Positions 4,587-61,475 are shown, numbered from the stretch's first letter. The stretch is 64,000 bases of DNA from a virus (IMGVR_UViG_2894352420_000001:14100-78099), one strand, 5' to 3'. The notes: generated by a model not told the origin, from the letters alone. Program-made: numbers and translations.

Positions 4587-4595
4587 AGTGTGTAT

Positions 4596-4629
4596 TCAAA
4601 AAAAGCCTCGGCTAAGAGGCTTTTTTTTA
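4596..4629 (-). terminator. Rho-independent terminator/hairpin after the tail tube gene
   Basis: AAAAAGCCTC-ggctaa-GAGGCTTTTT with A and T tracts on the flanks. Confidence 0.7.
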
Positions 4630-4652
4630 TAATTTTAAGTGTGTTTTTTTGA

Positions 4653-5168
4653 TTAAGCTACCACTACTTCCGGCCCAAATTCCCAAGGCGATGTTAATGC
4701 CTTTGTTGGCTGCAAAACAGACAAAAGAACATCGACAAGATAAAGCCCATCTTTTTGTAGGTTGAAATTTGCTTTTGCTGAAAGTTGGGTACGGATTAGT
4801 GTAATAATCTTACCCTTCTTTGGGACGATCTTAACAGACTTTTCGATGGTTACAGCTTGCAATGGCGCTTTCCATATCTTATTTGCTTCGGTTGTCCCTG
4901 TTACAGTACCTCCAAACAATGCCACCATGTCATCGGATGTGACGTTCATTAAAGAAATCATCATGGTCAATGCACCTGGCGTTACGTCCTTATCCAATGG
5001 CTGATCCGATTGGATAGACATAAAGTCTTTGGTTGTTGCGTCAGCCTGGGTTAAGGCCGCAGTTGAATCGGCATATATTGCTCCGATTGAAGTGAAGGCG
5101 GTAGCAACCCCACCATCAACAGCGATGGTCCCAATCTGGACATCACTGGTACCTCTTGTTACTCCCAT
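4653..5168 (-). CDS. Major tail tube protein
   Basis: 171 aa, Thr/Ala/Gly-rich; position after the tail terminator and before the chaperones. Confidence 0.75.
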   Translation of the reverse strand: MGVTRGTSDVQIGTIAVDGGVATAFTSIGAIYADSTAALTQADATTKDFMSIQSDQPLDKDVTPGALTMMISLMNVTSDDMVALFGGTVTGTTEANKIWKAPLQAVTIEKSVKIVPKKGKIITLIRTQLSAKANFNLQKDGLYLVDVLLSVLQPTKALTSPWEFGPEVVVA

Positions 5169-5201
5169 TATAGTGTGTGTTTTAAATTTTAATGTGTGTG
5201 A

Positions 5202-5615
5202 TTATTCCAGATTTTCAAAAATGAAATTTATTCTGATATTCATATAGTGTTGATTAATCTCCGGTTGTCTGATTAATGCTGTGCTGGCGATATAAAGGCT
5301 AAAATCTGAACCATATATATTGTTAAGAATAGACTTTAAAATCTCAACAAGTGTTTGAAGCCTGGATTCATTGGGAACAAAAAATGGTTTATTTGCTGGT
5401 CCTTGCTGCAAATCGACAACATGAATATTGACATTAGAAACTCCTTTTTGAAGACTACCGTCACTTAATGCAATTGTATTGACAACGATATCCTCCAACT
5501 TTGAATCGGCCGGTCTCACACTTTTATAAATGCTACCGGTAATGGCATACGCAAGCGTGGGATCACTCTTTAAAATCTTAAATATCTCAGTTGACTGATC
5601 CAGCGCTGTTTTCAT
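5202..5615 (-). CDS. Tail terminator/completion protein
   Basis: Size and synteny in the head-tail module. Confidence 0.55.
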   Translation of the reverse strand: MKTALDQSTEIFKILKSDPTLAYAITGSIYKSVRPADSKLEDIVVNTIALSDGSLQKGVSNVNIHVVDLQQGPANKPFFVPNESRLQTLVEILKSILNNIYGSDFSLYIASTALIRQPEINQHYMNIRINFIFENLE

Positions 5616-6055
5616 TTCATTGCTTTAATTTTCGCTAACATCTTCGCTTTTAGTTTCGGGAATTCCGATGATGCAAGCATTTCAGCAGACGTTAACACAT
5701 CGTAACCCATCGATTCAACGGCTGCCGCATAATCCATTCCGGCCACTACGATCAAAGCATATCCTTTTCCGGCGCGAGATGACAGTTCATCAGCTAACTG
5801 TCTTCCGGTTGCCGCACCTAGCTTCGAATCAGGGAAATAGTGACTGTAAACAACTCCATTAACAATAAGTACATAACCGATCGATGCCCGAAGATTTCCT
5901 GTCTGATCCTTGTAAGTATCCAGCGACCTGGCATGATTTACAAGTTCTTCACCTAGCGCCTGAAGTTGAAGGATAATCGCGCGATTGATTCTCTGGTACC
6001 TCTTTTCAAGCTCTCTCCTGAAATCAGCCGCGGTAAACTTGGATTTTACACCCAT
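5612..6055 (-). CDS. HK97 gp10-like tail completion/neck protein
   Basis: Motif DQTGNLRASIGY…AGMDYAAAVE. Confidence 0.7.
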   Translation of the reverse strand: MGVKSKFTAADFRRELEKRYQRINRAIILQLQALGEELVNHARSLDTYKDQTGNLRASIGYVLIVNGVVYSHYFPDSKLGAATGRQLADELSSRAGKGYALIVVAGMDYAAAVESMGYDVLTSAEMLASSEFPKLKAKMLAKIKAMK

Positions 6056-6369
6056 AATTTTGAATTCAGCTGCTTGGTTTCAAATCGTTTCACAACACCT
6101 TCAAGCTTAATATGCCCTTCCAATTCCACTTTTATCTTTGTCCCTCGGGCAATTTCCGTTGTTCCCTCAGGCATAAGAATCAAATACTCATATACATAAG
6201 CATTTCCGTCCGTGACCGTTATGTAAGAACCATTTCCATTCTCCTTGCTTCTGCAAATACCAACTTTTACCCATTCAGCAGCTTGTGGAATCCAATTTCC
6301 ATCTGCATCCTGTCCGCCTGGACTTGTCTGGATATATTGAAACAATTCGTATGGATATTGAGCGAACAT
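6046..6369 (-). CDS. Head closure/head-tail adaptor (likely start MFAQYPY at 6369)
   Basis: Synteny; beta-rich protein of about 107 aa. Confidence 0.55.
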   Translation of the reverse strand: MFAQYPYELFQYIQTSPGGQDADGNWIPQAAEWVKVGICRSKENGNGSYITVTDGNAYVYEYLILMPEGTTEIARGTKIKVELEGHIKLEGVVKRFETKQLNSKLWV

Positions 6370-6370
6370 A

Positions 6371-6700: not shown

Positions 6701-7032
6701 TCTGCTTCATTAGTTTTGGCGCCTTCATCGGCCGTTTGGCTTTTATCCTCCGCCTGTCCAGATCCAGAATTTGCTTCGGATCCTGAACTTTCTTCACCTT
6801 GATTATCGCCAGAATCCGCTTGTTCTTTATCAGAATCGGCTTTTGCTTTAATCTCGGTTTTCAAAGGAGGTTCCACTAACCCTCTTGAAACCAAACTTTC
6901 AAGTACACTTTTTTCAAGGTGACTGACATCGCTACCGACATAATGAATCTTATTAAAATCGGTGCGATCGCGGAATTCATCTTTAACAATGAAACCTTGG
7001 TTTTCAACAACATCCTTTTTCTTTCCTGCCAT
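6697..7032 (-). CDS. Hypothetical protein downstream of the capsid gene, with acidic low-complexity tail
   Basis: ORF track; coupled to neighbouring genes. Confidence 0.5.
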   Translation of the reverse strand: MAGKKKDVVENQGFIVKDEFRDRTDFNKIHYVGSDVSHLEKSVLESLVSRGLVEPPLKTEIKAKADSDKEQADSGDNQGEESSGSEANSGSGQAEDKSQTADEGAKTNEAE

Positions 7033-8114
7033 TACGCTTGAACAGTTTTAGTGTCAATCGTGTAAATCTGATCTACATTTGAAATCACCGGAAGTGATCT
7101 CGACTGAGAATTCGTATACTCAGCAAGTGAAGGACGGTTCGTTCTGAATTTCGACACCTGGATATAATTGTCCGCCTTTTCATAAGACACACCTGCAACC
7201 GGAGAGTTTTCCTCCGCTAAACGAGCATAGACCAAAGATCCAAGTACACCAGCCGGAGCAAGAACAACGCGACCTTCTGCCCATGGCTTGTAAGAAGATG
7301 TTTTTCCGTCGATTTGGTAACGAATTGAACGGTCTACCAGAACCACATCCAGACCAGTGATTGCCTTGAAAAGAGCGACAGCGGCATCTTGCCCAGGTGT
7401 GGGCTTAACTGTACCCAAATTACCAATAGATATAGCATAACGGTCTTTAAAGGCCGCACTATTCATCAGGTTTTTAAGTGCGAATTTATCAAGGTAAGCT
7501 ACCTGTGGTGAATTTCCGTCACCATTGGCTTTATCCTTTACTCTGTCGATATCGGCAAGAGGATCAGCAGTAGAAGGGCTTGACCAAAGGATGTTGGCAC
7601 CAAATTTGTTTTCGGCATAATACCCATAGTCTACGCGAATACCGGCGCCAACGTTTTCAGAAGCAATCTCTGCAACACCTTCAGAAAACCCACGAAGAAA
7701 TGTACCTTCATTCGTTTCGTACTGACCAGCAATAACAGCTTTGGTATGATTGAATAGATTTTTTACAATCTGCCCCTCAGTGCCGCCAATTGCAATGGTA
7801 GTTTGAATATCGGTCAGTTGTTGTTCGTTCAACCAACGCTCAATACCAACCTTTGGAATCTTACCGCCCATTGCACTTGTTCCGCCGGATGTTTTGGTCG
7901 GAACAGGTGAATCCAAAGCGATATAATCGGCTCTTACGAACTGATTTTGTTCAGAAACCGTATCCCACATACCAGTAACAGAGAAAACCTGCTCGGTTAA
8001 TTGCGTATGCAGATATGGTAGCGGGTTTTTAGTCCCGTTCAACTCCTGAACATATCTTAGGACTACCGGCTTGAACCATTTTTTAACGTAGTCCGGAAAT
8101 AATGACTGTTCCAT
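7032..8114 (-). CDS. Major capsid protein
   Basis: 360 aa following scaffold and decoration genes; resembles Bacteroidota prophage capsid-E-like proteins (IPKVGIERWLNE). Confidence 0.8.
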   Translation of the reverse strand: MEQSLFPDYVKKWFKPVVLRYVQELNGTKNPLPYLHTQLTEQVFSVTGMWDTVSEQNQFVRADYIALDSPVPTKTSGGTSAMGGKIPKVGIERWLNEQQLTDIQTTIAIGGTEGQIVKNLFNHTKAVIAGQYETNEGTFLRGFSEGVAEIASENVGAGIRVDYGYYAENKFGANILWSSPSTADPLADIDRVKDKANGDGNSPQVAYLDKFALKNLMNSAAFKDRYAISIGNLGTVKPTPGQDAAVALFKAITGLDVVLVDRSIRYQIDGKTSSYKPWAEGRVVLAPAGVLGSLVYARLAEENSPVAGVSYEKADNYIQVSKFRTNRPSLAEYTNSQSRSLPVISNVDQIYTIDTKTVQA

Positions 8115-8164
8115 TCTTTAAAATATAAAAGTGTGTGTGTGATTATATTGGCGATTTCAGCTTA

Positions 8165-8844: not shown

Positions 8845-9537
8845 TTAAAGTGCACCAAAGATGCTATCAACCTCCTCCTTGGAGGCTTCTTTTCCAGCAC
8901 CACCTCCAACAGGAGTAAATGGACGACCGGATTGTCCCAAACCAAGATCTGAAAGCTTTTGAGACGCCTGGGAAATTTTTGCTTCCGTAGCAGTCACATA
9001 TTCTTGAAAAGCTTCATCTGTTTCAAATTTCGAAGGATCGAAATTATCAATGTATACATCCTTTAAAATAGGATTGAAGTCTTTCAGCTTCGTTTCAAAG
9101 ATTTGTTTCCTTGATTCGCTTGTTTTGCCCGATTCGATAGCTGCCAGTTTATCTGAAAGTAACTTGTTGGCCTCTAACTGCGCCTTGTTGCTTTCAATTA
9201 ACCCTTTTGCCCATTCCGGCACCTCATTGGAATCTTTTGATTTATCCTTGCCGTTTTCAGAACTGCCCCCGGCGGAAGATTCTTTTTCTTTTTTAGCTGC
9301 CTCCTCTTTTTCGTCTTCTTTTTCCTTATCCTTTGCAGCGATTTCAGCAGCAGCGATTCGGTTAATTTCGGACTGGAAAGCTTTTAACATTGCACCGACC
9401 CCGTCAACAGCCTCGTCGATTTCGGTTTCTTCTTTAACGCTTTTCTCGAGATATTCAAGAACCACATTAATTGCTTTCTGGCTGTACCCAAGTGATTTGT
9501 ACTTATTTACAAGCGCTAAGCGTAATTTCTCTTTCAT
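8845..9537 (-). CDS. Capsid scaffolding protein
   Basis: Charged coiled coil with C-terminal KEEVDSIF; first gene of the head operon. Confidence 0.7.
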   Translation of the reverse strand: MKEKLRLALVNKYKSLGYSQKAINVVLEYLEKSVKEETEIDEAVDGVGAMLKAFQSEINRIAAAEIAAKDKEKEDEKEEAAKKEKESSAGGSSENGKDKSKDSNEVPEWAKGLIESNKAQLEANKLLSDKLAAIESGKTSESRKQIFETKLKDFNPILKDVYIDNFDPSKFETDEAFQEYVTATEAKISQASQKLSDLGLGQSGRPFTPVGGGAGKEASKEEVDSIFGAL

Positions 9538-9569
9538 GAAGAATTTGATGTGTGTGTGTAGTGTCAGGA

Positions 9570-9622
9570 CAAAACTATAAATAATATTTTATACTTACAA
9601 TATAAATATATTTTTATCTTTG
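9570..9622. promoter_or_regulatory. Divergent Bacteroidota -7 promoters (TAGTTTTG minus 9570-9577; TATCTTTG plus 9615-9622) flanking a palindrome at 9591-9609
   Basis: Both match the TAnnTTTG consensus and face the two late operons. Confidence 0.65.
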
Positions 9623-9644
9623 TTGGGTAAAACACATACACACT

Positions 9645-10112
9645 ATGAAGAACTTAATTTTTGCTTTAATTGGAATACTATATCTGGGAAGTGCTCGTGC
9701 TCAGGTTACTGTAACCTTTCCTGCGGGAAATATTGCCAGCGAAGAATGGGTCAAATCTCTTGTCACCAAAAAGATAGATTCATTGTCAACGGTGCATTCG
9801 AATGGGACTAAAAATATTCCGGATTCAGTCGTTCCTTTGCCGAACTGTTTACGGGGGCCAACGATTCAATCGATTACCTTCGACACCATGACTGGAATTT
9901 CAATACTGTTTGACGGAAAGGATGTCTTTGGATTGGATTATCTTCTACTAGGGCCGATTTATGAAATCGTGACGAAAGGTTCTTTGAAGCCAACGAGTAA
10001 TATCATTAAGATAGGATATCAAAGCCTGCCCCCTGGGGACTACCACCTGACGGTAACTGCAAATACCTGCACCGGGAAAGATTCAAAAGACTTTACCATT
10101 AAGAAAAAATGA
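9645..10112 (+). CDS. Secreted protein: signal peptide, A(S/T)xEWV motif and one Cys-flanked Ig-like module
   Basis: Signal ending SARA|Q; shares modules with the next two genes. Confidence 0.6.
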   Translation: MKNLIFALIGILYLGSARAQVTVTFPAGNIASEEWVKSLVTKKIDSLSTVHSNGTKNIPDSVVPLPNCLRGPTIQSITFDTMTGISILFDGKDVFGLDYLLLGPIYEIVTKGSLKPTSNIIKIGYQSLPPGDYHLTVTANTCTGKDSKDFTIKKK

Positions 10113-12694
10113 GAAAGTACTTTTTAAGTCTGCTACTACTTGTAGCAGCCCTTCCGATATTCTCTCAATCTGTAATAACCTACCCTTCTTCCGGCAATAT
10201 CGCAACAGAAGAATGGGTTCAGAACTATCTATTTGATCAATTAGAGAAATACAATATCTCTGATTGTGATCTACGTATTGACACCATCGTTCAAGAGGGC
10301 TCTGCTATTGAAATAGGATTAACCGTCTCGCTTCAAAACCTGAACAACTATTCAATCAGGATTGTAAAGGGTGAGCAAACGTGGTTTTGGAACGCGGTAC
10401 CCTATACTGTTGGTGAAAGGATGCGTATCGAAGGTGTTCCACGGCTTGATTCAGTCAGAATAACAATCAGGCCTACCTTGCACCCTACATGTTACGTGGG
10501 TTTCAATTACAATCTGGGAGGTGGGGATAACCCTGATCCAACGGACCCAACAGATCCTTCGAATCCAAATCCTACGGTTCCGTGCGCATCAGGACCTACT
10601 TTGCTGACAATTACCAATGTTCAGGCAACAGCGCTTACTGCTACTTTTCACGGAAACGGGGTATTTGAAGTATTGTGGAGAATTAAAAATGGAGCAGGAG
10701 CGACAATTCGAAGTGGAAATCTAACGCCTACCTCGTCAACTTTAAATTTCACTTACAGCGCAATTCCGTACGGAAATTATACACTTGATTTAATAGGAAC
10801 GAGCTGTATAGGTTCCAGTAGCAAAACGTTTGTTTATCAGGATCCCGGAGGAATAGACCCAGGAACTCCGCCTGTTCAGAATAACGTAATTCCTGCTTTT
10901 TCACAGGTTCCGAAGTTACTTGTTACAATTTCAAATGTAAATGGTGTTTATTCTGATAATACCGCTGACGATTACCAAGAATCTGGCATAACCTACCGTA
11001 ACGCTAACGGCCGGAAATATAGGGCCCTTTACTGGTTAAATGAAGTTCCTTGGAAAAATTCAGATAATTCGATTAAATCATTTAAGAATGTTACTATTCC
11101 AAACGGTATTCTTCTTACGGTAAGGAAAGAATATGCTGACGTAAATTGGGCCGGTTCTAATTCTCATACCGATTTCAAGAACAGAGGCTGGGATATTTGG
11201 CTTCACGCAAATGAAAACCCCAACGCAGACGGTTCTTGGTTGCTTGCCACGGCTGTTACGCAGATAACGACAAATAACGGGGTTGATTTAAATACAGGCT
11301 CTTTGGTTCGGGATAATAACCCTTCGTGGTTAGATGCTAGTAAATATGTGCCTCAATTCTATTTCAACCCTTCCAGTTACTCACCAGATAAGCCAGTTAC
11401 ATTACATGCTTTTCCGGCTGGAAATACAGCGCAAGAAACAGCAGACCATTTGTCGGCCGGAGGTATTAATCACCTTTGGTGGCAAAACCTTCACGGAGCC
11501 GGTATTTACACAAACGGAGCTCCGACTCCAGGGGTAGACACGCATGGTATTTTACCTTCTTTCAACCTTTCAAGTACTGATTATTATAATATAATCAAAG
11601 GTGTTTATGGGATTGAGCTTACACCGTACGGTGGTCAAGCAACTTGCGAACAGGCCCGCACTGTTGCAGATGGTATTTTTATTTGCGAAGGCTGCGTTTA
11701 TACGGATGAATTTACAGAAGGGTTGTACCCGCAATTTGCACCTTCGAGGGAATGTTTTTACCAACGATTTAATGAAAGAGTAGCGGCGCTTGGATATACC
11801 AAAGTTCAGTTACTTGGTGATTATGGTTATGGATCTCAAAATGTTGGGTTGAACGGGAAAGATCCTTTAGGATCCTATGCACTAAGTTTGACAAATTCTA
11901 ATGTTGTAAATAACCTTGAAAATGTAGATGGATCCAATAATACAGGGTTTAAACAATACGCCCAGGGTGCATATAATTACCGTGGCACTGTAATCGGTGA
12001 TTACTACGCTATAACTGGTCTTTCTCCTGCAAGGGGAACAGCGAAATTCTGGGAAGCATTGGTTACTATAAATGCGACGCCAAACAAAGCAAAAATGTTG
12101 TTCGCTACCGACCTTATGCAGTCAAATGCACACGGGGCGGATGTTCCTTATAAAGATTCGGGAACCCTTTTGGCGAATGGAAGTATCAGTTACGATTACC
12201 CTGATACGCCCGCCGAAATAATGAAATTTGACGCGTTCTTTTCGCTTTTGGTTTACGATTCATGGTATTATTGGCAAGCATTTGGAGCGAAAAAAGTAAG
12301 CGATATTGACTGGAGGCGCACGGGTATTTGTCTTGATGCCGGGGTGGTTGGTAGTAGAATGTATGCCCGGTTAATCCCTACCCTAAACCAGGCTGGAAGA
12401 CAAATTTATGCCTGTGATTACACAGCAAATGGCGTGCCTTTTACCAGCTCAACAACAGAACGGAGGTTGCCTATAAAAGGAGTTCCACGTTACGACAACC
12501 GCTATTTCAATGAAGCGTTAGCAGCAAATAAAGGAGTTGCGCTTTGTATTCCAGGAACCAAAAAAGCATTTTTCTATTATAACACAAACATTGATCCTTC
12601 TGTAATAGAAACCGTGATTATAACTTATAACGGTGTCCAATTCAACCTGGGTCAAGTGGCTGGAAGTACAATGGTGGTGGCTTACGAACCTTGA
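10109..12694 (+). CDS. Large secreted protein (861 aa): signal peptide, ATEEWV motif, DP-rich linker, Ig-like module and unassigned C-terminal domain
   Basis: Signal ending PIFS|Q; linker DNPDPTDPTDPSNPNP. Confidence 0.6.
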   Translation: MRKYFLSLLLLVAALPIFSQSVITYPSSGNIATEEWVQNYLFDQLEKYNISDCDLRIDTIVQEGSAIEIGLTVSLQNLNNYSIRIVKGEQTWFWNAVPYTVGERMRIEGVPRLDSVRITIRPTLHPTCYVGFNYNLGGGDNPDPTDPTDPSNPNPTVPCASGPTLLTITNVQATALTATFHGNGVFEVLWRIKNGAGATIRSGNLTPTSSTLNFTYSAIPYGNYTLDLIGTSCIGSSSKTFVYQDPGGIDPGTPPVQNNVIPAFSQVPKLLVTISNVNGVYSDNTADDYQESGITYRNANGRKYRALYWLNEVPWKNSDNSIKSFKNVTIPNGILLTVRKEYADVNWAGSNSHTDFKNRGWDIWLHANENPNADGSWLLATAVTQITTNNGVDLNTGSLVRDNNPSWLDASKYVPQFYFNPSSYSPDKPVTLHAFPAGNTAQETADHLSAGGINHLWWQNLHGAGIYTNGAPTPGVDTHGILPSFNLSSTDYYNIIKGVYGIELTPYGGQATCEQARTVADGIFICEGCVYTDEFTEGLYPQFAPSRECFYQRFNERVAALGYTKVQLLGDYGYGSQNVGLNGKDPLGSYALSLTNSNVVNNLENVDGSNNTGFKQYAQGAYNYRGTVIGDYYAITGLSPARGTAKFWEALVTINATPNKAKMLFATDLMQSNAHGADVPYKDSGTLLANGSISYDYPDTPAEIMKFDAFFSLLVYDSWYYWQAFGAKKVSDIDWRRTGICLDAGVVGSRMYARLIPTLNQAGRQIYACDYTANGVPFTSSTTERRLPIKGVPRYDNRYFNEALAANKGVALCIPGTKKAFFYYNTNIDPSVIETVIITYNGVQFNLGQVAGSTMVVAYEP

Positions 12695-12720
12695 TTAACA
12701 GATAACATACACACTTTTTA

Positions 12721-14496
12721 ATGAAAAGATTAACCGGAATAATAATTTTATTACTTGTTCAAAGTTTATCCTTTGGGCAAGTAAATGTTCACATAAGTAA
12801 CGGAGGCCGTGCAGCAACTCAGGAATGGGTAAAGGTCTACCTGGAAACTCTGCTGAATCGTATAGAAGCTCCTGTTGACACTGGCGGAGTAACTACTCCT
12901 CCTTCGCCTATTTGTTCAGGTCCAAATATTCAGTCTGTTTCTTCCACAAGTCCAACAGGCCTGACTTTCACCTGGTCAGGTTTGAATGTTCCGGATATTG
13001 TATGGACTGTAAGTAATAGCACTGGTATTCTTCGTACAGGATCGGTTAATTCATCAAATCCGACCCGCAGCATTATTTACAATTCAATTGGTTATGGTAC
13101 TTTTTCTTTTAGTATTAAAGGAATTGGATGCCCTACAACTCCTGCGCCTGTAAGTTTCACTTTAGAAGCTCCCCCGGTTATTGTTTCTTCCGGAAGAAGA
13201 ATTTATATGAATACATCAGGGTATGGATTTAGCGCATCTGACCCGTATGGTATCGATCAGGATTGGAGAAAAAGAATAGAAGCATTTACAAGCCTGAATT
13301 ATAATGGTGTTACGTTTTCTGGCATCAACGGGGTAAGGCTATGTATGAAGTGGATGGACTATGAGCCTTCCCAGGGTTTATATAATGATGCAAAGTTGAT
13401 TGCGGCAATAAATTATTGTAAAAGCAAAGGCCTCAAATTAGCTATCTGCGTATTTCCTCTTAGAATAGCTACCGATGGATTCATTCCGGAGAGCGAGCGC
13501 GCGAAAGGATCTGGCGGGACAATATGGATAACAGAAATCGATAAGATAACGCTGGCACCATATAGCGTCATTGCAAAGTCAAAGTTCAGGGCTATGATAA
13601 AACATCTAGCTTCAATAATGGCTCAGTATCCCAACGACACGGATTATATATCTATGGGTTATGGGAATAGTGAAGAATTTTGGAACCCGATTGTACAGAC
13701 CTACGCACCATCAGCTTTCAGTGAGTTAACCGGATATTCTGACGTAGATAGATCAGCATGGGCAACTTATGCAGCGGCCAATGGGCATGCAGGTTTAGCG
13801 CCACCAGTTACTCCAAACATTGCTAATGCATACGATACTGGGTATTTCTGGACTACTGAAAATGGCAAATTATGGTATGATTTCATAACGGATGGATTAG
13901 TAAATCTTCATGCGACATTCCGAGATGCAGTGCATGAGGGCGGGGTAAAAGCATGTGGATTCTATGCCGACGCAGGTGGTGCGCAATCAGCCTGGTACAT
14001 GACTTACCGATTGAACAAGATATTTGCCGGATGCGATGTGATGTATTCATCCGAAGGCGCAAATAGGTATGATCTAGGTACTAAGCTACTTTCAGCTGAT
14101 GTAAATCTTGGCACCTTCCCCAACGCAGAAGCTGGAATTGAATTTGACCCCGAAGATCTTTCAACGGACGGATCTACCAATTACGGGAATAATACCGATT
14201 CTGGTCATTTACTCGAATACGGTTCTTCATTCTTTAAGCGAGGCGGCAAGATTATACATTTCGCCTTGGCTTATAGTTTTGGGGAAAATGGCACGAATAA
14301 TAATATCATTCAATTAGCTCCGGCGCTTTGGGTGCTTCAAAATGACTATGTCAAGTCTACAACGATTCCACCGATTACCTCAGTGCCAACCATTACTTTT
14401 CCGATAACAAGTTTTTCAGGTGATCAGGGATACCGGTCACTATGGTCTTCAAACGGTGGCGGCACAGACAAACAAGTAAGGATAAAAATAGAATAA
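12721..14496 (+). CDS. Secreted putative glycoside hydrolase (clan GH-A-like TIM barrel) with Ig-like module
   Basis: Signal ending LSFG|Q; VRLCMKWMDYEPSQGLYN…KGLKL; candidate catalytic Glu in GNSEE and GIEFD. Confidence 0.55.
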   Translation: MKRLTGIIILLLVQSLSFGQVNVHISNGGRAATQEWVKVYLETLLNRIEAPVDTGGVTTPPSPICSGPNIQSVSSTSPTGLTFTWSGLNVPDIVWTVSNSTGILRTGSVNSSNPTRSIIYNSIGYGTFSFSIKGIGCPTTPAPVSFTLEAPPVIVSSGRRIYMNTSGYGFSASDPYGIDQDWRKRIEAFTSLNYNGVTFSGINGVRLCMKWMDYEPSQGLYNDAKLIAAINYCKSKGLKLAICVFPLRIATDGFIPESERAKGSGGTIWITEIDKITLAPYSVIAKSKFRAMIKHLASIMAQYPNDTDYISMGYGNSEEFWNPIVQTYAPSAFSELTGYSDVDRSAWATYAAANGHAGLAPPVTPNIANAYDTGYFWTTENGKLWYDFITDGLVNLHATFRDAVHEGGVKACGFYADAGGAQSAWYMTYRLNKIFAGCDVMYSSEGANRYDLGTKLLSADVNLGTFPNAEAGIEFDPEDLSTDGSTNYGNNTDSGHLLEYGSSFFKRGGKIIHFALAYSFGENGTNNNIIQLAPALWVLQNDYVKSTTIPPITSVPTITFPITSFSGDQGYRSLWSSNGGGTDKQVRIKIE

Positions 14497-14510
14497 TATT
14501 AAAATTTATC

Positions 14511-14864
14511 ATGAAACCAAACTTTAAAAAGATCCTGATTGCAGGCGGAATTGTACTGATAAGTATTACTTGTTTTGTGCTTTACGTCCAATTTAAAAGA
14601 CAAAATCAAGCTCCAAAACAGCCAATTGATATTGCTTTGGACAGTGCAGACTATTGGAGAAAGGAGGTAATCAAGGCAGATAATAATTTAAAAGATGCAC
14701 AACAAAACTTAAAAATTCATGAAGGAAACATTGACAGCCTGGCAAAAGATATGGCCACCGATAGTTTTGCTATGGTTATCCGTCGCAGCGTGCTACGGGC
14801 AAGAGTCAAAAGTGATATTAGAGCAGGTGAAATACGTGACAGCATTAGAAGACAGCACCCTTAA
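14511..14864 (+). CDS. Membrane-anchored coiled-coil protein, spanin-like (start MKPNF at 14511)
   Basis: N-terminal TM then coiled coil; overlaps the next gene; in the lysis region. Confidence 0.45.
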   Translation: MKPNFKKILIAGGIVLISITCFVLYVQFKRQNQAPKQPIDIALDSADYWRKEVIKADNNLKDAQQNLKIHEGNIDSLAKDMATDSFAMVIRRSVLRARVKSDIRAGEIRDSIRRQHP

Positions 14865-15111
14865 ATTCGAAGCTTTAAAACCTTATGTCCGACAATTGCA
14901 AATCACACATAAACTTCAATCTGAGGCCTATGAATCAGAAAAACGTTCCCACATGTTCGACAACATCCTGCATGAATCAAAAGTGTCTGAATGCCAGACG
15001 GCACTTGACTCCGAAAAAGAGGCCGGGCGAAGGAAAGGCATTAAAGGAGCAATAATTGGAGCTGCTGCAATCACGCTGATTCGAGTTATTGCAAAGGTTG
15101 CCAGCCAATAA
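14719..15111 (+). CDS. Signal peptide plus C-terminal TM protein, spanin-like partner
   Basis: Overlaps the previous gene in another frame; two hydrophobic segments. Confidence 0.4.
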   Translation: MKETLTAWQKIWPPIVLLWLSVAACYGQESKVILEQVKYVTALEDSTLKFEALKPYVRQLQITHKLQSEAYESEKRSHMFDNILHESKVSECQTALDSEKEAGRRKGIKGAIIGAAAITLIRVIAKVASQ

Positions 15112-15146
15112 ATACACACACTAACAAAGCAAAACTCACTACCAGC

Positions 15147-15584
15147 GTGGAGAATAATATTGATAAAATCACCGACTTAACCGAGAAAAAGCCTACCCAG
15201 GCAATCATCTACATGCTTCTTACGGCACTGCTATCTCTGTCGGGCGTCATCGTCTGGCAAAATAACAAATTAGGCAATAAGGATGAAGAAAAGGAAGTCG
15301 CAGTAGCCAATCAACTCACAGCCGACAGCAAAGAAATATCCTTTTGGAAAGATCTGTATAAGGATATGAAAAAGGAGAAAGATGATTGCAACAGCCTTGT
15401 TGTGGTGCGCACTGACGCAACTGCAATAAAGGATCAGGAAAGGATAAAATTTCTCGAAGAAAGCATAAAAGGAAGTATAAAATCAACCAAAAAGCAAGCG
15501 GTCAGCATTCAGAAGCTTTCCGAAACGATCCCAACTGTCAAAACACCAACTATTACTCCAAACAATCAAACCAATGAAAACTAA
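15147..15584 (+). CDS. Membrane protein (holin/antiholin candidate)
   Basis: Single N-proximal TM followed by coiled coil; lysis region. Confidence 0.4.
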   Translation: MENNIDKITDLTEKKPTQAIIYMLLTALLSLSGVIVWQNNKLGNKDEEKEVAVANQLTADSKEISFWKDLYKDMKKEKDDCNSLVVVRTDATAIKDQERIKFLEESIKGSIKSTKKQAVSIQKLSETIPTVKTPTITPNNQTNEN

Positions 15585-16014
15585 ACATGTAACCTGGATA
15601 ACTTTGTTGCCTTTGGCTTGCCTCGTTATTTTGCTGGCTATGGGCGTAAAATCTCAACAAAGTCCAACGCAGCAATTATCAAAAGTAGATTCATTGCAAA
15701 TTCCTGCCGGTATTAAATTACCTGACAGCACTCAGATAAAGCTTGTTGTCAGAGCAAAACGACTGGATAAACTTGACAGCCTTCTTTCGCTCGATAGCAT
15801 GTTAAAAGCCAGCAATGAAAGGGCAATCGTAAATGTCAAAAAGAAAATTGCACGATTTGAACAGTACCGCAAAACCCCAATAGTTGAGCTGATTCCAAAA
15901 TCAAAGCCTTCCTTGGTCGTCAACCCACCGGTTCTTCCTGACTCGATCCCTTTTAAAAAAAAGCCGAAACGCTCAGTCTTAATGAGGATGAAGGACTTCA
16001 TTAACAAGCCTTAA
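15574..16014 (+). CDS. Membrane-anchored hypothetical protein
   Basis: N-terminal hydrophobic segment; Pro/Lys-rich tail. Confidence 0.45.
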   Translation: MKTKHVTWITLLPLACLVILLAMGVKSQQSPTQQLSKVDSLQIPAGIKLPDSTQIKLVVRAKRLDKLDSLLSLDSMLKASNERAIVNVKKKIARFEQYRKTPIVELIPKSKPSLVVNPPVLPDSIPFKKKPKRSVLMRMKDFINKP

Positions 16015-16079
16015 AGGCCGTCGGCGGAGACCCCGCCGATTACAAAATCATACACACAATTATAACAGAAATAATTAAA

Positions 16080-16604
16080 ATGGGCATTGTCCTCTGGCTT
16101 TTAGCCAAAATACTTTCTAATCTTCTTTCCATACCCGCTTTCTTTCACACCATCGCAGGAGCAATCCGTTTTAAAGGTGGCTGGAATTACATCAACCGAT
16201 CATTCCTAAATGCGGCCTACGCAGAAGATGTATATGGAAACATCGCATATGCGACTATGCTCAATGATCTGTTCATCAAAAAAGGCGGCTACCACTACGG
16301 TGCCCGGAATGAAACAATCAGCTCTGCCACTGGGAAAAACTGGGTGAACGGCAAACTAGCTTTTTTGGGCATGGGACTTGCCGGTACATTGAACCTGATT
16401 GATTATCGTAACTGGGAAAAAGGAGGACACTGCTGGGTTTCGATTCAAGGATGGTCTCAGTATGATTTCATTGGCAAGAGACCGCCACGACGTGTGCCGG
16501 TTTATTATACTGCTTCTTTTATCCTGCTTGCTTTCATCCTTCTTTTTGCCCTTTGGAAATTATCCATGTGGCTGATCATCATTCTTCACACACTACTATT
16601 TTAA
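16080..16604 (+). CDS. Membrane protein (holin candidate)
   Basis: Hydrophobic ends, NETISSATGKN motif; TAATG-coupled to the endolysin. Confidence 0.4.
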   Translation: MGIVLWLLAKILSNLLSIPAFFHTIAGAIRFKGGWNYINRSFLNAAYAEDVYGNIAYATMLNDLFIKKGGYHYGARNETISSATGKNWVNGKLAFLGMGLAGTLNLIDYRNWEKGGHCWVSIQGWSQYDFIGKRPPRRVPVYYTASFILLAFILLFALWKLSMWLIIILHTLLF

Positions 16605-17059
16605 TGAAAACACAAAAAGAATTAATTGCGAAGCTCGGTAACCCATATACGGCTCTCAAAACGTTTGAGAAAAAATGGATGGAATACTGGGATATCCCAG
16701 ACGACATCAACAAAGAAATTCCTGCCCTACCCAATAAGGTTTACATGAACTACCTGATCATCCAGCCTTTTGAAGACACGATGCGTGAGTTGATTGCGAC
16801 TGGTCTTCACAAAGAAATTAAGACATGGGATGGATGCTTTAATGTTCGCACCAAACGTGGACAATCCGGGATTTCTGTTCATTCTTGGGGCATTGCGGTT
16901 GATCTGAATGCTGCATGGAATACTTTTCATGGAAAAGTTTCCTGGTCAAATGAGTTCTTGGATGTTTGGAGACGCAATGGCTGGATTTGTGGTGCGGATT
17001 GGTCGAAGGCATCCGTTGATGGGATGCATTTTCAGGGAGACAATTTTGTTCCTGCGTAA
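16604..17059 (+). CDS. Endolysin, M15-family peptidase (start MKTQK at 16604)
   Basis: Zn-ligand motifs SVHSWGIAVDLNA and DGMHFQ. Confidence 0.8.
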   Translation: MKTQKELIAKLGNPYTALKTFEKKWMEYWDIPDDINKEIPALPNKVYMNYLIIQPFEDTMRELIATGLHKEIKTWDGCFNVRTKRGQSGISVHSWGIAVDLNAAWNTFHGKVSWSNEFLDVWRRNGWICGADWSKASVDGMHFQGDNFVPA

Positions 17060-17384: not shown

Positions 17385-19229
17385 TTATGAAACGTCAATT
17401 CTTTGCAATTGCGTGAAGAGTTCAAGAAACTCGATTGATATGAACTCAGGGAATTCCTCAAAAACGTCTTCTAAAATTTTCTTTTTAAAACCATCATTCT
17501 TGTATTCTGGCTTCTTAAAAAACGGAAATGCATCCTTAACTAATTCCTCTAACCTATGACCAGGGTAGTTCAAAATCCAGTTAGGAACCAAAATTTTAAA
17601 ACCATTAATCATTTTACATTCTGAAAGACCTTCTACCAATAATTCATGATCTGCTTTTATTTTCAATAGTCCTGTAACTTTTTCACTTACTGTTTGCATT
17701 TGATCATTATCAATGCCTGATATTTTCGAAATTTTATCCGTTTCTTTAAAACCAATTTTTTCTTTGTCAATAACCTTTTCTAAAAGAAGAAATATTCCCA
17801 AAAAGAAAGGTTCAAAAAGATAATTTTCAATACTGTACCTTTTGTTCTCGCCTAACACTTTAATATTGTCATAACTGACATTCCCACTGTCATTATCGAT
17901 TATTCCAGCGACATACTTGTTTCCAGCGCTTAATAATTCTTTTGTAAAACGTTTTACTTTTTCGCATCCACCATCCTCTTTTCCTGTTGACACAAAAGTC
18001 AAGGACACATCTTGCAGCAGCTTGTCGCTAATAAGAGAATATATTGAGTTATAAACTATAAAATCAATATTTGATTCAACAAATACTTGCCGTTTGTCCT
18101 CGTACAGTAAATTCAAATTATTCAACCCCGCAGTTAGGGATTTAATAGCTTTCTTTTTTCCAATTTTTATTGGATAACCTTTTTCTCTATCCATTAAATA
18201 AATTGCAGATTCCGGGACTAATGCTATCGTTGTAGGAGAATGGGTAGTCATTATCACCTTGACGCCATTTGCTCCCACTATTACATCTTGTATGACATCC
18301 AATAATAATTTAGACATTGAAGGATGTAATAGAGAATCGGGTTCATCAAACAGAATTAATTGAGGAAAATTGCCTCCTATTGTCGATGAGTATAGCGCAA
18401 AAATCAAAGACATAATTGTCTTTTCACCTGAAGACAAAAATAGGAAATAGATCAAATTACCATTTTCAACATCTTTAAGCTGCACCTGTGGAATATAATC
18501 TTCGTTCATTGGTGTTTCGTAAACTACACGGTACTTAAAATTTGCTCTTTCTAAGATTTCATTGAATACTACCCATGGTGCCTTTTTACCGGAAGTTAGG
18601 TGATTGTAATATTTATTTTTTAAGTAAAATTGGTAAAATAACAATTGTATAGAGGGAGAAAACAGCTCATTTAGCACATCAAGAAAAACTATATAATCAT
18701 TTATCGTTAGGTCACTTGGTGCCTTATTACTCTTATCACATAAATCTTTAACATATTTAAGCTTATGTTCCTGTATTTTAACAATATCATTTTGGAAATG
18801 CATAAGATTTGTCGCCAGATTCCCAATCGCATGTGATCTAAAAAATTCCAAAATAACTTGGTTTAGAGCAGCAACTTCTTCCTCCAAATTTTGGTATTTA
18901 ATATGTCTGGTAAGTGATAATGCCATGACAATAGGCCGCAAGATGCCCCAACTCGTTGTTAAGTCATTTACTAAATTATTTTCGTTGCCATCTATATAAT
19001 TCAAACCTGGACTTACATAAACGGCATTTTCTAATATCTTATTTTCGTCGTCATATATACCTCCAAAACGCGAATAATCCCGTACCATCCCTTGACATGC
19101 GTTCAAGATCCACTGTAACAATTGAGTTTTACCTGAACCATTTTCTCCTGTCAAAACGGTAAAATCATTTAAATCGATTGGACCGGCATCTTTTAAAATC
19201 TGGTCATTGCCTTGTAAATGTAAAATCAT
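17385..19229 (-). CDS. ABC-type ATPase fused to a TOPRIM-like domain (OLD-like nuclease; probable anti-phage defence)
   Basis: Walker A GENGSGKT, signature LSSGEK, Walker B LFDEPD, H-loop THSP; TOPRIM FVESNID…IIDND…SIENY. Confidence 0.75.
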   Translation of the reverse strand: MILHLQGNDQILKDAGPIDLNDFTVLTGENGSGKTQLLQWILNACQGMVRDYSRFGGIYDDENKILENAVYVSPGLNYIDGNENNLVNDLTTSWGILRPIVMALSLTRHIKYQNLEEEVAALNQVILEFFRSHAIGNLATNLMHFQNDIVKIQEHKLKYVKDLCDKSNKAPSDLTINDYIVFLDVLNELFSPSIQLLFYQFYLKNKYYNHLTSGKKAPWVVFNEILERANFKYRVVYETPMNEDYIPQVQLKDVENGNLIYFLFLSSGEKTIMSLIFALYSSTIGGNFPQLILFDEPDSLLHPSMSKLLLDVIQDVIVGANGVKVIMTTHSPTTIALVPESAIYLMDREKGYPIKIGKKKAIKSLTAGLNNLNLLYEDKRQVFVESNIDFIVYNSIYSLISDKLLQDVSLTFVSTGKEDGGCEKVKRFTKELLSAGNKYVAGIIDNDSGNVSYDNIKVLGENKRYSIENYLFEPFFLGIFLLLEKVIDKEKIGFKETDKISKISGIDNDQMQTVSEKVTGLLKIKADHELLVEGLSECKMINGFKILVPNWILNYPGHRLEELVKDAFPFFKKPEYKNDGFKKKILEDVFEEFPEFISIEFLELFTQLQRIDVS

Positions 19230-19354: not shown

Positions 19355-19373
19355 ATACTTATATTGTAAGTAT
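19355..19373. promoter_or_regulatory. Palindromic operator ATACTTA-N5-TAAGTAT
   Basis: Perfect arms; the motif recurs at 9591, 32847 and 46568. Confidence 0.6.
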
Positions 19374-19424
19374 TTTTAATTATATTTACGATATAAAAAG
19401 ATTACCATACACACACTACGAAAA

Positions 19425-23204: not shown

Positions 23205-23215
23205 AAAATATAACA

Positions 23216-23422: not shown

Positions 23423-23430
23423 ATATTTCT

Positions 23431-46545: not shown

Positions 46546-46586
46546 CAAATGTAATTAATATTTATTTATACTTACAATATAAGTAT
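46546..46586 (-). promoter_or_regulatory. -7 element TACATTTG (46546-46553) plus palindrome ATACTTA-N5-TAAGTAT (46568-46586)
   Basis: Consensus match upstream of the replication operon. Confidence 0.6.
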
Positions 46587-47846: not shown

Positions 47847-48344
47847 TTAAAGATTTTCGCGCTCGGCCATCACCTCAGACAATGGCCGCATGTTTGCCGG
47901 AATTTCGTCCACTTCTTCTTCCGCAGTGTAAGGGAAAACATCCAGGATCGGCGTCAAATTCATGTCCGTAGTTTCGTAAGGAATTAGCATGGTGCGCAGA
48001 CTTTCGGTGATTCGTTGTAATGCCTGATCAATGCCGTCAGCATTCACTAGCATATAATTAACAACCTTTTTTTCCTTGCCGGATTTTTCATCGACAGAAA
48101 AGTATATCACTTTGGCTTTGAACCACTTTTCGCCATCTTCGTAAGTGAAAAGATCAGCCAGACGCATGCGGGTAATTGATGTGACACTGAAATCACTTGC
48201 ACCGGTTGTTATGCGTTTATATCCGTTTACTTCAGCTTCCGTGTAGGAAACTGCGTCAAACAAATATGCTTCGTTATGCGTTTTTAGACTTCCCGCGCTG
48301 TCTTCTGCCTGGAATCTAATTTTAACTAAATAATAGCTAGCCAT
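47847..48344 (-). CDS. DUF4494-family protein
   Basis: YLVKIRF…YLFDAVSYTEAE…WFKAKV…DEKSGKEK…ILDVFPY. Confidence 0.75.
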   Translation of the reverse strand: MASYYLVKIRFQAEDSAGSLKTHNEAYLFDAVSYTEAEVNGYKRITTGASDFSVTSITRMRLADLFTYEDGEKWFKAKVIYFSVDEKSGKEKKVVNYMLVNADGIDQALQRITESLRTMLIPYETTDMNLTPILDVFPYTAEEEVDEIPANMRPLSEVMAERENL

Positions 48345-58776: not shown

Positions 58777-59448
58777 TTGAAAAAAATTGAAAAAATATTT
58801 CAACAACTTGAATTAGAGGGACTTTCAATCACTGAATTTGAAAGGTATGCTGGAATATCCAATGGATATCTCAATAATACATTATCTAGGGATAGCGATA
58901 TTTCAGCAAAAATCTTAGACAAAATAAGGGGACATTCACCGGAAAGCTATAAAATTATTGAGCGAGCTTTGGGTGATGTTGTTCTTGGTAGCGACTTTGT
59001 TTCAGAAAATTCTCAAAAACTCACAGATTTCAAACCTAACTCGGATTTGATACCTTATTGGGAAATAGATTTTATAGCGGGAACTAATTTTGACGCAGTA
59101 GATAACCAAAGCACTGAACCAACATATTATATGGATATTCCCGACTTTCGGGGATGCACCGCATTTCGTGCATATTCAGATAGTATGGAGGGCCTGATCA
59201 AAAGTGGCTCTGTTTTATTCGGCACCAAAATTGAAAGATGGAATGAACATCTGGAATATGGTCAAGTTTATGGTATAGTATGTGATGATGGGCGTAAGTA
59301 CCTAAAGTACATCAAGCGATTTAGAGAAAATCCACTTGAATATTTCCTTCTGGAAAGCGAAAACAAATCTTACGATGAATTTGAAATGCCAAAAAGAGCG
59401 ATACGTTCCATTTGGTTAATACATGGTCATTTAAGCAAACGTATTTAA
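58777..59448 (+). CDS. CI-like repressor with S24 peptidase domain
   Basis: N-terminal HTH (TEFERYAGISNGYL); IAG, SDSM (Ser), YLKYI (Lys). Confidence 0.85.
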   Translation: MKKIEKIFQQLELEGLSITEFERYAGISNGYLNNTLSRDSDISAKILDKIRGHSPESYKIIERALGDVVLGSDFVSENSQKLTDFKPNSDLIPYWEIDFIAGTNFDAVDNQSTEPTYYMDIPDFRGCTAFRAYSDSMEGLIKSGSVLFGTKIERWNEHLEYGQVYGIVCDDGRKYLKYIKRFRENPLEYFLLESENKSYDEFEMPKRAIRSIWLIHGHLSKRI

Positions 59449-59483
59449 ACATTTTAAATAATATCACCTCTAAACAAAAAGAA

Positions 59484-60236
59484 ATGAAACATTTATTACT
59501 ACTATCAGTTTGCGCTTTACTTTTTACAGGTTGCTCAAAAAGTGAAGATAAAACACCGGAGCCGGAAACAATTATTGACTCTCCAACAATTGAATTGAAA
59601 TATGACTCTCAGCATCAGTATGCTCTAAAAAAAGGTTCAGCAGATGTATTTCCGTCTACTTTCAACTGGATTTCATCGAATGAAAAAGTAGGTAAAGTTG
59701 ATGCAAATGGCCTGTTTAAAGCAAGAAAGATTGGAGAAACGACAATAACAGGAACTGCATACGGGAAAAATGTAGAAAGTAAAGTTACGATTACTCCTTA
59801 TGTTACATTATTTACTGAACCTTACATTGAATTTGGAGCTTTAAAGGAAACTATAAAATCTAAGGAAAAAAGAAAACTTTTAACTGAGACTGCAACGGGA
59901 TTATTATATGAAGGTTCATCTATCACTCAAACTCGCGCCGTATTATATGTTTTTACAAATCAAAGATTGGCAAGTGCCGGGATTTTGTTTGAAAATGCAA
60001 CTTCAACAGTAGCTCTCTCTTCAACTTTTCTAAAAGAAAGATATCCTGATAGAGCGACAATTGATGGAAAGGTTTATATGCTTAACGATGAAAGAACATG
60101 GGGTGTGGTATTGACCGTAGATCCATCATATGGATATATGGGAGTTTATCTTCCAAATTCAACAAATGGACGAATGGTGAGTGATCAATACAATTCCGCA
60201 ATAGAATCATTTAAAAATATAATAAAACAGAACTGA
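59484..60236 (+). CDS. Surface lipoprotein with an Ig-like (Big_2) domain
   Basis: Lipobox FTG|C followed by SKSEDK; WISSNEKVGKVDANG. Confidence 0.75.
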   Translation: MKHLLLLSVCALLFTGCSKSEDKTPEPETIIDSPTIELKYDSQHQYALKKGSADVFPSTFNWISSNEKVGKVDANGLFKARKIGETTITGTAYGKNVESKVTITPYVTLFTEPYIEFGALKETIKSKEKRKLLTETATGLLYEGSSITQTRAVLYVFTNQRLASAGILFENATSTVALSSTFLKERYPDRATIDGKVYMLNDERTWGVVLTVDPSYGYMGVYLPNSTNGRMVSDQYNSAIESFKNIIKQN

Positions 60237-60471
60237 AAACATTTTCAATTCCCAATTTGACTTTATGAGTGCAGCGGGAAAAGTTGTCGACAAATGTTTT
60301 GTATCCGGAAATTTAAAAAGTGATTACTTCATCCATTTGAACGCCCCTCCTCCTATGAATAATTCCAGTAGTTTATAAATAAGTGCCGTTGCGCAAACCA
60401 GAAAAACGCATTGAACAACAGTATTAAGTTGAAGAAAATAATTTATGTAAACTTCCATATTTGTCTGAATT

Positions 60472-60891
60472 ATGAATTTTGGGAATGATAGAAAGAGAAT
60501 TATTTTACTGAGACATAAAATGGTTATATCAAAGGAAGAAGAAAGTGAATACAATAAATTAATGTCTGCTTACCCAGATAATGATATTTATGAATCTAAA
60601 CTTTATCAGGAACTGTCAGGTGTTGGATTTCTTAGGTATACCGGAAAAGATTTATTACAAAATGAAGATGGAAATTACATTGAACAAGAACCTTTCGACA
60701 ATGGCAAATATATAACAACTGTTAGCGGCGAGCTATCACTAACTAGCCTATTTGAGTCGGAGCTTCTTTCCAAAATTGAGAGCCAACGATTCAAGAAAAT
60801 TGAGAGTCTTGGGATTCTCATCGGCGGAATCGGGGGACTTATCACTTTGCTTACGTTCCTCTATCATCAAATCCAAAGATTTTTGAAGTAA
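60472..60891 (+). CDS. Hypothetical protein with C-terminal TM
   Basis: ORF track; overlaps a convergent ORF. Confidence 0.45.
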   Translation: MNFGNDRKRIILLRHKMVISKEEESEYNKLMSAYPDNDIYESKLYQELSGVGFLRYTGKDLLQNEDGNYIEQEPFDNGKYITTVSGELSLTSLFESELLSKIESQRFKKIESLGILIGGIGGLITLLTFLYHQIQRFLK

Positions 60892-61068
60892 ATCGTCGGC
60901 AAATTTATCAGCATCAGGATATGACACCATTGGCAGCTTTCCAGAATCAATAAAATTGAAAAGCATTTGTGCATGAACCATGTGTAGAATAGGAGAACGG
61001 GAGATATATGTTTCCTGCCTTGTAACAAACTCAATGCACTTAAATCGAAGTTCTTGGTCTGCATTCAT
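60748..61068 (-). CDS. Hypothetical protein
   Basis: ORF track; preceded by the (CA)n element. Confidence 0.45.
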   Translation of the reverse strand: MNADQELRFKCIEFVTRQETYISRSPILHMVHAQMLFNFIDSGKLPMVSYPDADKFADDLLQKSLDLMIEERKQSDKSPDSADENPKTLNFLESLALNFGKKLRLK

Positions 61069-61103
61069 ATTTTATAGTGTGTATTTAATAAAATGAAGAA
61101 AAA

Positions 61104-61418
61104 TTACTTCCAAAACTTGAAACTATAAAGCCACTTATACCCGAACAAACTGAAAAAATAATATCTGTTATGGCAAACATCAGCAGTCTTCTTGCGCTGA
61201 TCCAGGCCAACGTCGCGAAGTAGATTTAAGTTGGAGTTTAAAAGTTCAGCGGTGTCGATATTTCGGAATTGTGAATTTCTGGCTGTAAAAATCTCACAGA
61301 TCTTTTCGTCTTTAGAAAATAGCCTACGAATAGTGCCGATTACTTTTCCTTCATCATTTTTAACTAGCGATTCCTGTAATGACAGATTAATGAAAAGCTT
61401 TTCATTAGTAGTACTCAT
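61104..61418 (-). CDS. Hypothetical protein
   Basis: ORF track; preceded by the (CA)n element. Confidence 0.45.
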   Translation of the reverse strand: MSTTNEKLFINLSLQESLVKNDEGKVIGTIRRLFSKDEKICEIFTARNSQFRNIDTAELLNSNLNLLRDVGLDQRKKTADVCHNRYYFFSLFGYKWLYSFKFWK

Positions 61419-61475
61419 AGAAACAATTAATAATAGTGTGTGATTAATAATATAAAATTACAAAAACAATCAGCC

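Follow-up and report, generated by a model that had tools for sequence, protein, structure and literature searches.

In a Dyadobacter prophage, about 40% of the late genes, and none of the early genes, have a short CA repeat (typically ACACACT, and here termed the CA box) just upstream of the start codon. Most of this prophage lies in the 64,000-nucleotide (nt) stretch analysed here (IMGVR_UViG_2894352420_000001:14100-78099; hereafter the window). Comparison of sequences supports the view that the element behaves as an mRNA-level signal of the translation initiation region, being strand-specific, locked to ATG and predicted to be unpaired, and we would give a probability of about 0.5 to the reading that it is an unpaired translation enhancer of the CA/ACA type, working in a host that does not respond to Shine-Dalgarno (SD) signals. 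The host is a soil bacterium of the genus Dyadobacter (Spirosomataceae, Bacteroidota) with a genome of 7.39 Mb and 39.7% G+C, in which the window is G000:C23:61431-125430; the prophage is siphovirus-like and 78 kb in total, about 14 kb of it lying left of the window.

Placement and anatomy of the CA box

A first-pass annotation had listed 14 sites at which such an element precedes late or structural genes on either strand, and had seen none before early genes. All of this is borne out. There is a CA run at every one of the 14 sites, on the coding strand of the following gene, and further copies were found at 4638-4644 and 5193-5200 (both minus strand), with two more left of the window. When CA runs of 6 nt or longer are counted, 16 of the 39 in the prophage end at most 30 nt before the ATG of a co-oriented open reading frame (ORF) (null 0.042, binomial p=1.6e-12), compared with 2 of 39 GT runs (the opposite orientation), which is the background level. 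ACACACT occurs 14 times, against 4.27 +/- 1.88 in shuffled sequences (14 was reached in none of 100 shuffles), and the density of ACACACTA in the window is 15-fold above that in the rest of the genome. The copy at 32554-32560 (minus) is inside a gene and looks like a chance occurrence.

The split between gene classes is sharp, with 12 of 29 late genes and none of 37 early genes carrying the box (Fisher p=1.05e-5). The bearers, as assigned by Pfam and PHROG scans of the prophage proteins, are the genes for the major head protein, scaffold, tube (two copies), chaperone, portal, MuF and fibre-like proteins, the lysis genes, and two genes of unknown function adjoining the integrase gene; late genes without it comprise the overlapping connector genes and those for the terminase subunits, tape measure and decoration protein.

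Pooling this prophage with three close relatives allows the core to be defined. Runs that end in C are followed by T in 38 of 41 cases, then by A in 29 and by T in 28 of the 41, and runs that are not gene-proximal have no preference for TAT downstream; because of this preference after gene-proximal runs, we take the core to be ACACAC-TAT with three to five CA units. No other position from -50 to +30 is conserved when sequences are aligned on the run, the 5' flank being merely A/T-rich. The 53 gene-proximal runs of the four phages most often stand 1 nt (ACACACT-ATG, nine cases) or 4 nt (ACACAC-TATA-ATG, eight cases) before the ATG; the distance is 7 nt or less in 33, with 11 flush or overlapping, and ranges from -1 to 25 nt. 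Spacing is thus not strict, and changes from gene to gene and from one orthologue to another. Several copies occupy nearly all of an intercistronic spacer (spacers of 11-26 nt), and at 25882, 5200, 15114 and 4644 the upstream stop codon stands only 1-8 nt before the box. The predicted probability of being unpaired is 0.87 for the run and 0.59 for positions -15 to -1 of other genes.

Promoters of the late operons

How is transcription of the boxed operons begun? At the late-operon starts at 9559, 9638 and 19409, at a fourth at C23:52075 and at their counterparts in relatives, a -7 or -7-like box (TAnnTTTG/A) is found upstream of the run, at a distance of 7-20 nt (mostly 7-15 nt). In Flavobacterium johnsoniae, transcription starts 4-5 nt past the -7 box (PMC6847099), and such a start would place the run at about +3 to +16 of the mRNA, i.e. 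in the predicted 5' untranslated region (5'UTR). Internal CA boxes are without a -7 box. The CA box itself is unlike the -7 box TAnnTTTG of the primary-sigma promoters of Bacteroidota (-33 TTTG / -7 TAnnTTTG), and where it abuts an ATG it cannot be a -10/-7-type element for that gene.

The -33 region of the late promoters is covered by a palindrome, ATACTTA-N5-TAAGTAT, with six matches (at most two mismatches) against 0.37 expected, and another at about G000:C23:52110. The promoters whose -33 region it overlaps carry a -7 box and precede late, cargo and internal early units, and it recurs in Emticicia relatives (eight matches in one genome) and Spirosoma relatives. It probably serves a phage-wide transcription regulator as operator. 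As the late promoters have this palindrome and -7 boxes of their own, transcription control has an element distinct from the CA box.

These promoters bear on the idea, which we consider improbable, that the CA box is a single-element late promoter or initiator used by a modified host polymerase or an unrecognised phage polymerase, the transcript starting at the A after ACACACT and being leaderless or nearly so. Such an A follows in 10 of the 14 window copies and 29 of the 41 pooled C-ending runs; several copies come after a terminator or hairpin; and the phage encodes its own sliding clamp, as in T4 late transcription. However, there is no conservation upstream of the run, the gap between run and ATG is as variable as described above, copies that come first in an operon are already preceded, at 7-20 nt, by a -7 or -7-like box, and host genes carry the box in the same ATG-locked position without any phage (see below). 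Nor did scans of the large prophage proteins with PHROGs or Pfam give a match to an RNA polymerase, and there was no Pfam or PHROG match to a late sigma factor or co-activator in the 70-odd proteins scanned (many of them of unknown function), the sliding clamp being present. T4 late promoters (TATAAATA, served by gp55/gp33 and the sliding clamp) are similar in that a short single element precedes many late genes, including some inside operons, in a phage that encodes a clamp; they differ in that here the box stands too close to the ATG and at distances that vary too much, that there are promoters of host type apart from it, that it is also found on host genes, and that no gp55-like protein was found. 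Two more specific forms were rejected: a bipartite promoter, as there is no second conserved block besides the run, and a promoter of the T7/SP6/K11 type, as only about 9 nt are conserved compared with a promoter of about 23 bp, there is no upstream conservation and no polymerase was matched among the large proteins scanned. The core of the box resembles the -9 to -1 part of the SP6 and K11 promoters, a point in favour of the promoter reading.

Relatives, host genes and the surrounding prophage

Homologues of the portal protein were found in 18 of 300 genomes of the family, in at least 80 IMG/VR contigs (by an alignment query, a single-protein scan having given none) and in 80 genome contigs across Bacteroidota; a megablast search of the late region against 50,697 phage records gave no match. 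The first-pass annotation had suggested looking for conservation in related prophages, and heavy use of the box is indeed seen in five Dyadobacter prophages and one complete metagenomic phage. Gene-proximal runs number 17 in 45.7 kb of Dyadobacter flavalbus NS28, 11 in 34 kb of Dyadobacter sp. LHD-138 (in which the portal is merely 44% identical), seven in 50 kb of D. linearis CECT 9623, six in 54 kb of D. fermentans JDP9, and 13 in the 36 kb examined of the IMG/VR phage (complete, 79.3 kb, with terminal repeats), where ACACACT occurs 22 times against 8 for the control. Emticicia phages have three to five such runs and Spirosoma phages none or one; Bacteroidales relatives make no heavy use of the box, and other relatives are at background (13 of 1227 and 25 of 1617 genes, the latter mainly in Dyadobacter and Emticicia loci).

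Some sites are shared. The layout at the chaperone gene is the same in D. flavalbus, D. linearis, LHD-138, JDP9 and the IMG/VR phage, and the spacing of the box at 15114-15122 is the same in the last of these. The terminator that follows the tube gene (4598-4627) has CA boxes on both flanks, an arrangement kept in D. flavalbus and the IMG/VR phage. A mini-ORF across the terminator, driven by the orphan box, was considered and dropped: it has five codons, reaches across a hairpin arm, and occurs in the IMG/VR phage (MKKAS) and D. flavalbus, and not here or in D. linearis. The doubly boxed terminator, one of whose boxes has no start codon after it, and the copies placed exactly at gene junctions would suit an endoribonuclease site, at which an ACA-specific MazF-like enzyme or a host RNase would cut long late transcripts into gene-sized mRNAs whose short leaders are defined, or tune their stability; ACA is the word cleaved by Escherichia coli MazF (PMC3879156). 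We think this a poor prospect, since no such nuclease was found in the prophage, operon-first genes carry the box though they would need no processing, and cleavage would be costly on the mRNAs most needed, unless coupled to translation.

Elsewhere the box comes and goes. The tape measure gene has it in four relatives and lacks it in this prophage; the capsid gene has it here, in LHD-138 and in the metagenomic phage (two copies, before a gene 22% identical), and not in NS28 or JDP9; the genes for the 861- and 591-amino-acid (aa) proteins have exchanged box status between this prophage and NS28; and MuF is another of the genes whose orthologues gain or lose it. Such turnover on orthologues, with spacing that changes, speaks for selection acting on a small module that can be moved about, and not for the inheritance of fixed sites. 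The relatives are strongly mosaic (identities between LHD-138 and this phage are 44% for the portal, 62% for MuF, 71% for the lysin and 77% for a 207-aa protein), which might suggest that the box has no role in expression and is a gene-border linker for the exchange of modules, or a hitch-hiking repeat. This we hold to be very improbable: recombination would have very little to work on in a run of 7-11 nt, and a linker would leave unexplained the strand bias, the ATG locking and the late-only distribution, as well as the equal positional bias in host genes.

That bias emerges from 4838 crude gene calls outside the prophage. ACACAC peaks at -20 to -1 (48 occurrences, against 2-10 per 10-nt bin elsewhere upstream), GTGTGT being flat. 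Of all ACACAC in the genome, 32 per 1000 fall in -25 to -1 windows, a concentration about three times that of 18 other permutations of A3C3 (6.5-15.7 per 1000). A run lies within 30 nt of the ATG in 61 host genes; only 11 of these show an exact -7 box within 40 nt, and the distances are scattered. Thus about 1% of host genes share the ATG-locked word, compared with about 40% of the late genes of the phage. The description of the box as a phage-specific late translation signal, offered in the first-pass annotation, therefore needs amending: its association with late genes, its behaviour like a signal at the level of mRNA and its locking to ATG stand, and its restriction to the phage does not, since host genes and related Dyadobacter phages carry it. 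The premise of the same annotation, that Bacteroidota generally do not use SD pairing, holds for this host: SD-like words occur at -20 to -4 in 4.3% of genes, against 7% in a control window. None was seen next to CA boxes. Host start regions have an adenine peak at -14 to -11, of the Bacteroidia type, and are depleted in G.

A rough genome-wide index, the count of ACACAC-N0-8-ATGA against its reverse, is 377/226 in Dyadobacter and 260/155 in Spirosoma, and is raised in several other genera, though not all; a family-wide count of ACACACTATG was abandoned as too rare to inform (140 in Dyadobacter, against 100 for the control). A second prophage in the host genome was sought as a control with the phrog_2 terminase, and none was found. 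Two host loci deserve mention. At G000:C51:3899-10359, five consecutive genes each have ACACAC within 30 nt of the ATG; their products, without assigned function, look secreted (with C1q-like and BclA_C-like domains), and a gene for an adhesin of the type IX secretion system (T9SS) adjoins. The host rpsU gene, encoding bS21 (G000:C34:155639), has no SD sequence upstream, unlike that of F. johnsoniae, for which a strong one is reported.

The features are collected in Table 1. Apart from the box, some other aspects of the prophage attracted attention. This temperate phage encodes its own beta sliding clamp of DNA polymerase III (46600-47757, minus), with the gene for a DUF4494 protein adjoining (47847-48344, minus), and DnaB and SSB as well. 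The MuF-like head protein (27932-29653, plus) also matches PHROG 16625, 'Bxa ADP-ribosyl transferase' (E = 1.4e-90), which suggests an ejected effector domain fused to MuF. A gene for a 614-aa ATPase of the AAA_21/AAA_15 type (17385-19229, minus) lies between two late operons on the opposite strand, and looks like an inserted defence or cargo gene. Finally, two direct TGCACACA repeats just upstream of the integrase start (63211-63229), which give GUGUG on the strand of the int mRNA, are probably integrase arm sites unrelated to the CA box.

Table 1. CA boxes, palindromes and main gene blocks of the prophage (window coordinates unless a contig is given)
Feature	Position	Strand	Context
CA box ACACACT	4587-4593	minus	flush with ATG of tail assembly chaperone-like gene 4089-4586; directly after intrinsic terminator
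Orphan CA box	4638-4644	minus	8 nt past tube gene stop, upstream of terminator hairpin 4598-4627; no start codon after it
CA box ACACACACT	5172-5180	minus	3 nt before ATG of tail tube-like gene 4653-5168
Second, distal CA run of tube gene	5193-5200	minus	begins 1 nt past stop codon of gene 5202-5615
(CA)5-CT box	8130-8141	minus	15 nt before ATG of major head protein gene 7032-8114 (phrog_29)
(AC)5A run	9549-9559	minus	11 nt before ATG of scaffold-like gene 8845-9537; 10 nt downstream of -7 box TAGTTTTG (9570-9577)
CA box	9638-9644	plus	flush with ATG of 155-aa gene 9645-10112; 15 nt downstream of -7 box TATCTTTG (9615-9622)
CA box	12709-12715	plus	5 nt before ATG of 591-aa gene 12721-14496; inside 26-nt spacer after 861-aa gene
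CA box	15114-15122	plus	2 nt past stop of ORF 14719-15111; 24 nt before GTG of gene 15147-15584
CA run	16052-16058	plus	21 nt before ATG of 174-aa gene 16080-16604; after hairpin
CA box	16587-16594	plus	9 nt before ATG (16604) of endolysin-like gene; within 3' end of upstream gene
CA box	19409-19417	plus	7 nt before ATG of 1259-aa fibre-like gene 19425-23204; downstream of palindrome 19355-19373 and -7-like box TATATTTA (19381-19388)
CA box	25882-25890	plus	fills 11-nt spacer from stop of terminase large subunit (25880) to portal ATG (25892)
CA box	27923-27931	plus	flush with ATG of MuF-like head morphogenesis gene 27932-29653; after 20-nt palindromic hairpin
CA box	61076-61082	minus	7 nt before ATG of 106-aa gene (unknown) 60751-61068, near integrase
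CA box	61435-61442	minus	16 nt before ATG of 104-aa gene (unknown) 61104-61418
CA box	G000:C23:52075	minus	same prophage, left of window
CA box	G000:C23:~53137	plus	same prophage, left of window
Palindrome, good copy	9591-9609		between divergent late promoters; separate from CA box
Palindrome, good copy	19355-19373		perfect; upstream of late operon at 19.4-29.7 kb
Palindrome, good copy	32847-32865
Palindrome, good copy	46568-46586
Palindrome, weaker copy	18609
Palindrome, weaker copy	45640
Late block 3	9537 to 1	minus	scaffold, decoration protein, major head protein, connectors, tube, chaperone, tape measure
Late block 2	9645-17059	plus	three proteins without assigned function and lysis genes
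Late block 1	19425-29653	plus	fibre-like 1259-aa protein, terminase, portal, MuF
Cargo	33-36.6 kb		UmuDC/SRAP/Fpg
Early operon	~58.6 to 37.2 kb	minus	Rha/ANT, AAA_24, SSB, C5-methylase, DnaB, beta sliding clamp, YopX
CI-like repressor	58777-59445
Integrase	61929-63194	minus

How the box might be read

We infer an effect on translation, of the following kind. A G-free CA repeat (overlapping ACA triplets; ACACAC-U-A-U), single-stranded immediately 5' of the start codon, would raise initiation on ribosomes that do not use SD pairing, probably as an unstructured landing site for the 30S subunit or for bS1; where SD sequences are not read, the 30S subunit could have its main anchor in a tract of this kind. 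The Dyadobacter phage group would then have spread a signal used by its hosts to those genes (capsid, scaffold, tube, portal, MuF and lysis) that must yield large amounts of product late in infection, and boxes that follow directly on stop codons in tiny spacers may also help ribosomes to restart or re-initiate.

There is precedent for this in enterobacteria. ACA triplets upstream of the start codon raise translation by up to 100-fold in Salmonella, with flexible spacing, and CA and ACAA repeats stimulate translation in E. coli, ACAA doing so without an SD sequence, S1 being the proposed reader (PMC3879156). The C/A-rich enhancers of yifK, dppA and gltI (targets of GcvB) share with the CA box their G-free CA/ACA repeats, single-strandedness, position in the 5'UTR near the start codon and flexible spacing. 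They differ in assisting an SD sequence, a trait that the CA box lacks in its SD-less host; the Dyadobacter core, moreover, is a defined ACACAC-TAT, often flush with the ATG and present on about 40% of late genes, and unlike the GcvB targets it has no G/U-rich antagonist small RNA that we could find. The A-rich, Kozak-like initiation regions of Bacteroidia, with A at -3, -6, -12 and -13 (Baez et al., 2019, PMC6847099), also resemble it to some extent, in their SD-blind ribosomes, their unstructured, G-poor leaders and the adenine peak at -14 to -11 in the host, and in that the two commonest registers of the box place an A at -3 (from the CA box or from the TATA spacer). There the signal consists of position-specific adenines and not of a repeated word, the alternate C is no part of it, and a CA element is not mentioned in that paper. 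The searchable literature yielded no account of a CA-repeat element at start sites in Bacteroidota or their phages, and the CA box would best be filed as a variant of the C/A-rich translation enhancers, acting without SD.

Several observations weigh against the enhancer reading. The TAT after the run is more specific than mere lack of structure would call for, and would suit a sequence-specific reader. Genes that have the motif are not significantly different from those that lack it in overall accessibility from -20 to +10. Three of four phages share the orphan box at 4638-4644, with no start codon conserved after it. If the box were no more than the best ribosome site, it would be expected on early genes too, yet it is on none of the 37; and Spirosoma hosts share the weak genome-wide excess, yet their phages are without the motif. 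Finally, the box has no complementarity to the 16S rRNA 3' end (...GGAACACCUCCUUUCU), the only part compared.

Some of these points lead to a reading that is unlikely in our estimate, in which a regulator acting in trans and dedicated to the box (an RNA-binding protein of phage or host, or a G/U-rich small RNA) has its operator there and switches late translation on or off by a logic like that of T4 RegA, Mu Com or GcvB. It would account for the strict late/early split (12/29 against 0/37), for a specificity beyond composition (ACACAC-TAT), and for the confinement of heavy use to one Dyadobacter phage group (and, in part, Emticicia) despite a similarly weak host signal in Spirosoma; many early and late proteins have no known function. 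Against it, scans of the prophage proteins found no RNA-binding domain, bS21 copy or sigma factor; the box precedes about 1% of host genes in uninfected cells; and LHD-138, for all the divergence of its portal (44% identity), uses the box as heavily as do close relatives. The sole G/U-rich RNA candidate (46400-46540, minus) sequesters its GUGUGU within a stem and lacks conservation in relatives.

This candidate resembles a small RNA, spans about 130 nt and lies in the gap that separates the gene for the sliding clamp from the early gene next to it, with a palindrome and TACATTTG box of its own, a long stem and a U-run (minimum free energy -47 kcal/mol, z = -3.2). It was rejected as a small RNA directed against the motif, as its GUUGUGUGUUC pairs with CACAC internally. 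DNA searches did not find its body in five relatives, in which only the promoter palindrome recurs, and no Rfam family was found in the window.

Some Bacteroidota phages encode their own bS21, which has been proposed to favour late phage mRNAs. The idea of a translational advantage for late messages in SD-blind Bacteroidota could apply here too, although bS21 is encoded in this genome by the host copy alone and not by the prophage, and the candidate determinant is in cis, on the mRNA. We regard it as a rather unlikely proposition that ACACAC-TAT is the cis element of a late translational regulon, in which late mRNAs would be favoured at the SD-blind ribosomes through binding of the box by a factor of the Dyadobacter phage gene pool, or by a host factor brought in late. 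If true, it would be the cis-encoded counterpart of the proposed bS21 strategy, and a layer of temporal control that has not been described in phages of Bacteroidota.

On the enhancer reading, to which we return, the box would have a more general interest. What has been known so far of start-site choice without SD in Bacteroidota comes down to position-specific adenines and low structure, to which a 9-nt word locked to start codons adds a concrete and portable candidate enhancer. Should it work as such, those who engineer Cytophagales and other Bacteroidota would gain a ready-made strong ribosome site, and phage genes with high expression could be recognised by it; should a dedicated reader be needed, the box would point to translational timing of the late genes in these phages.

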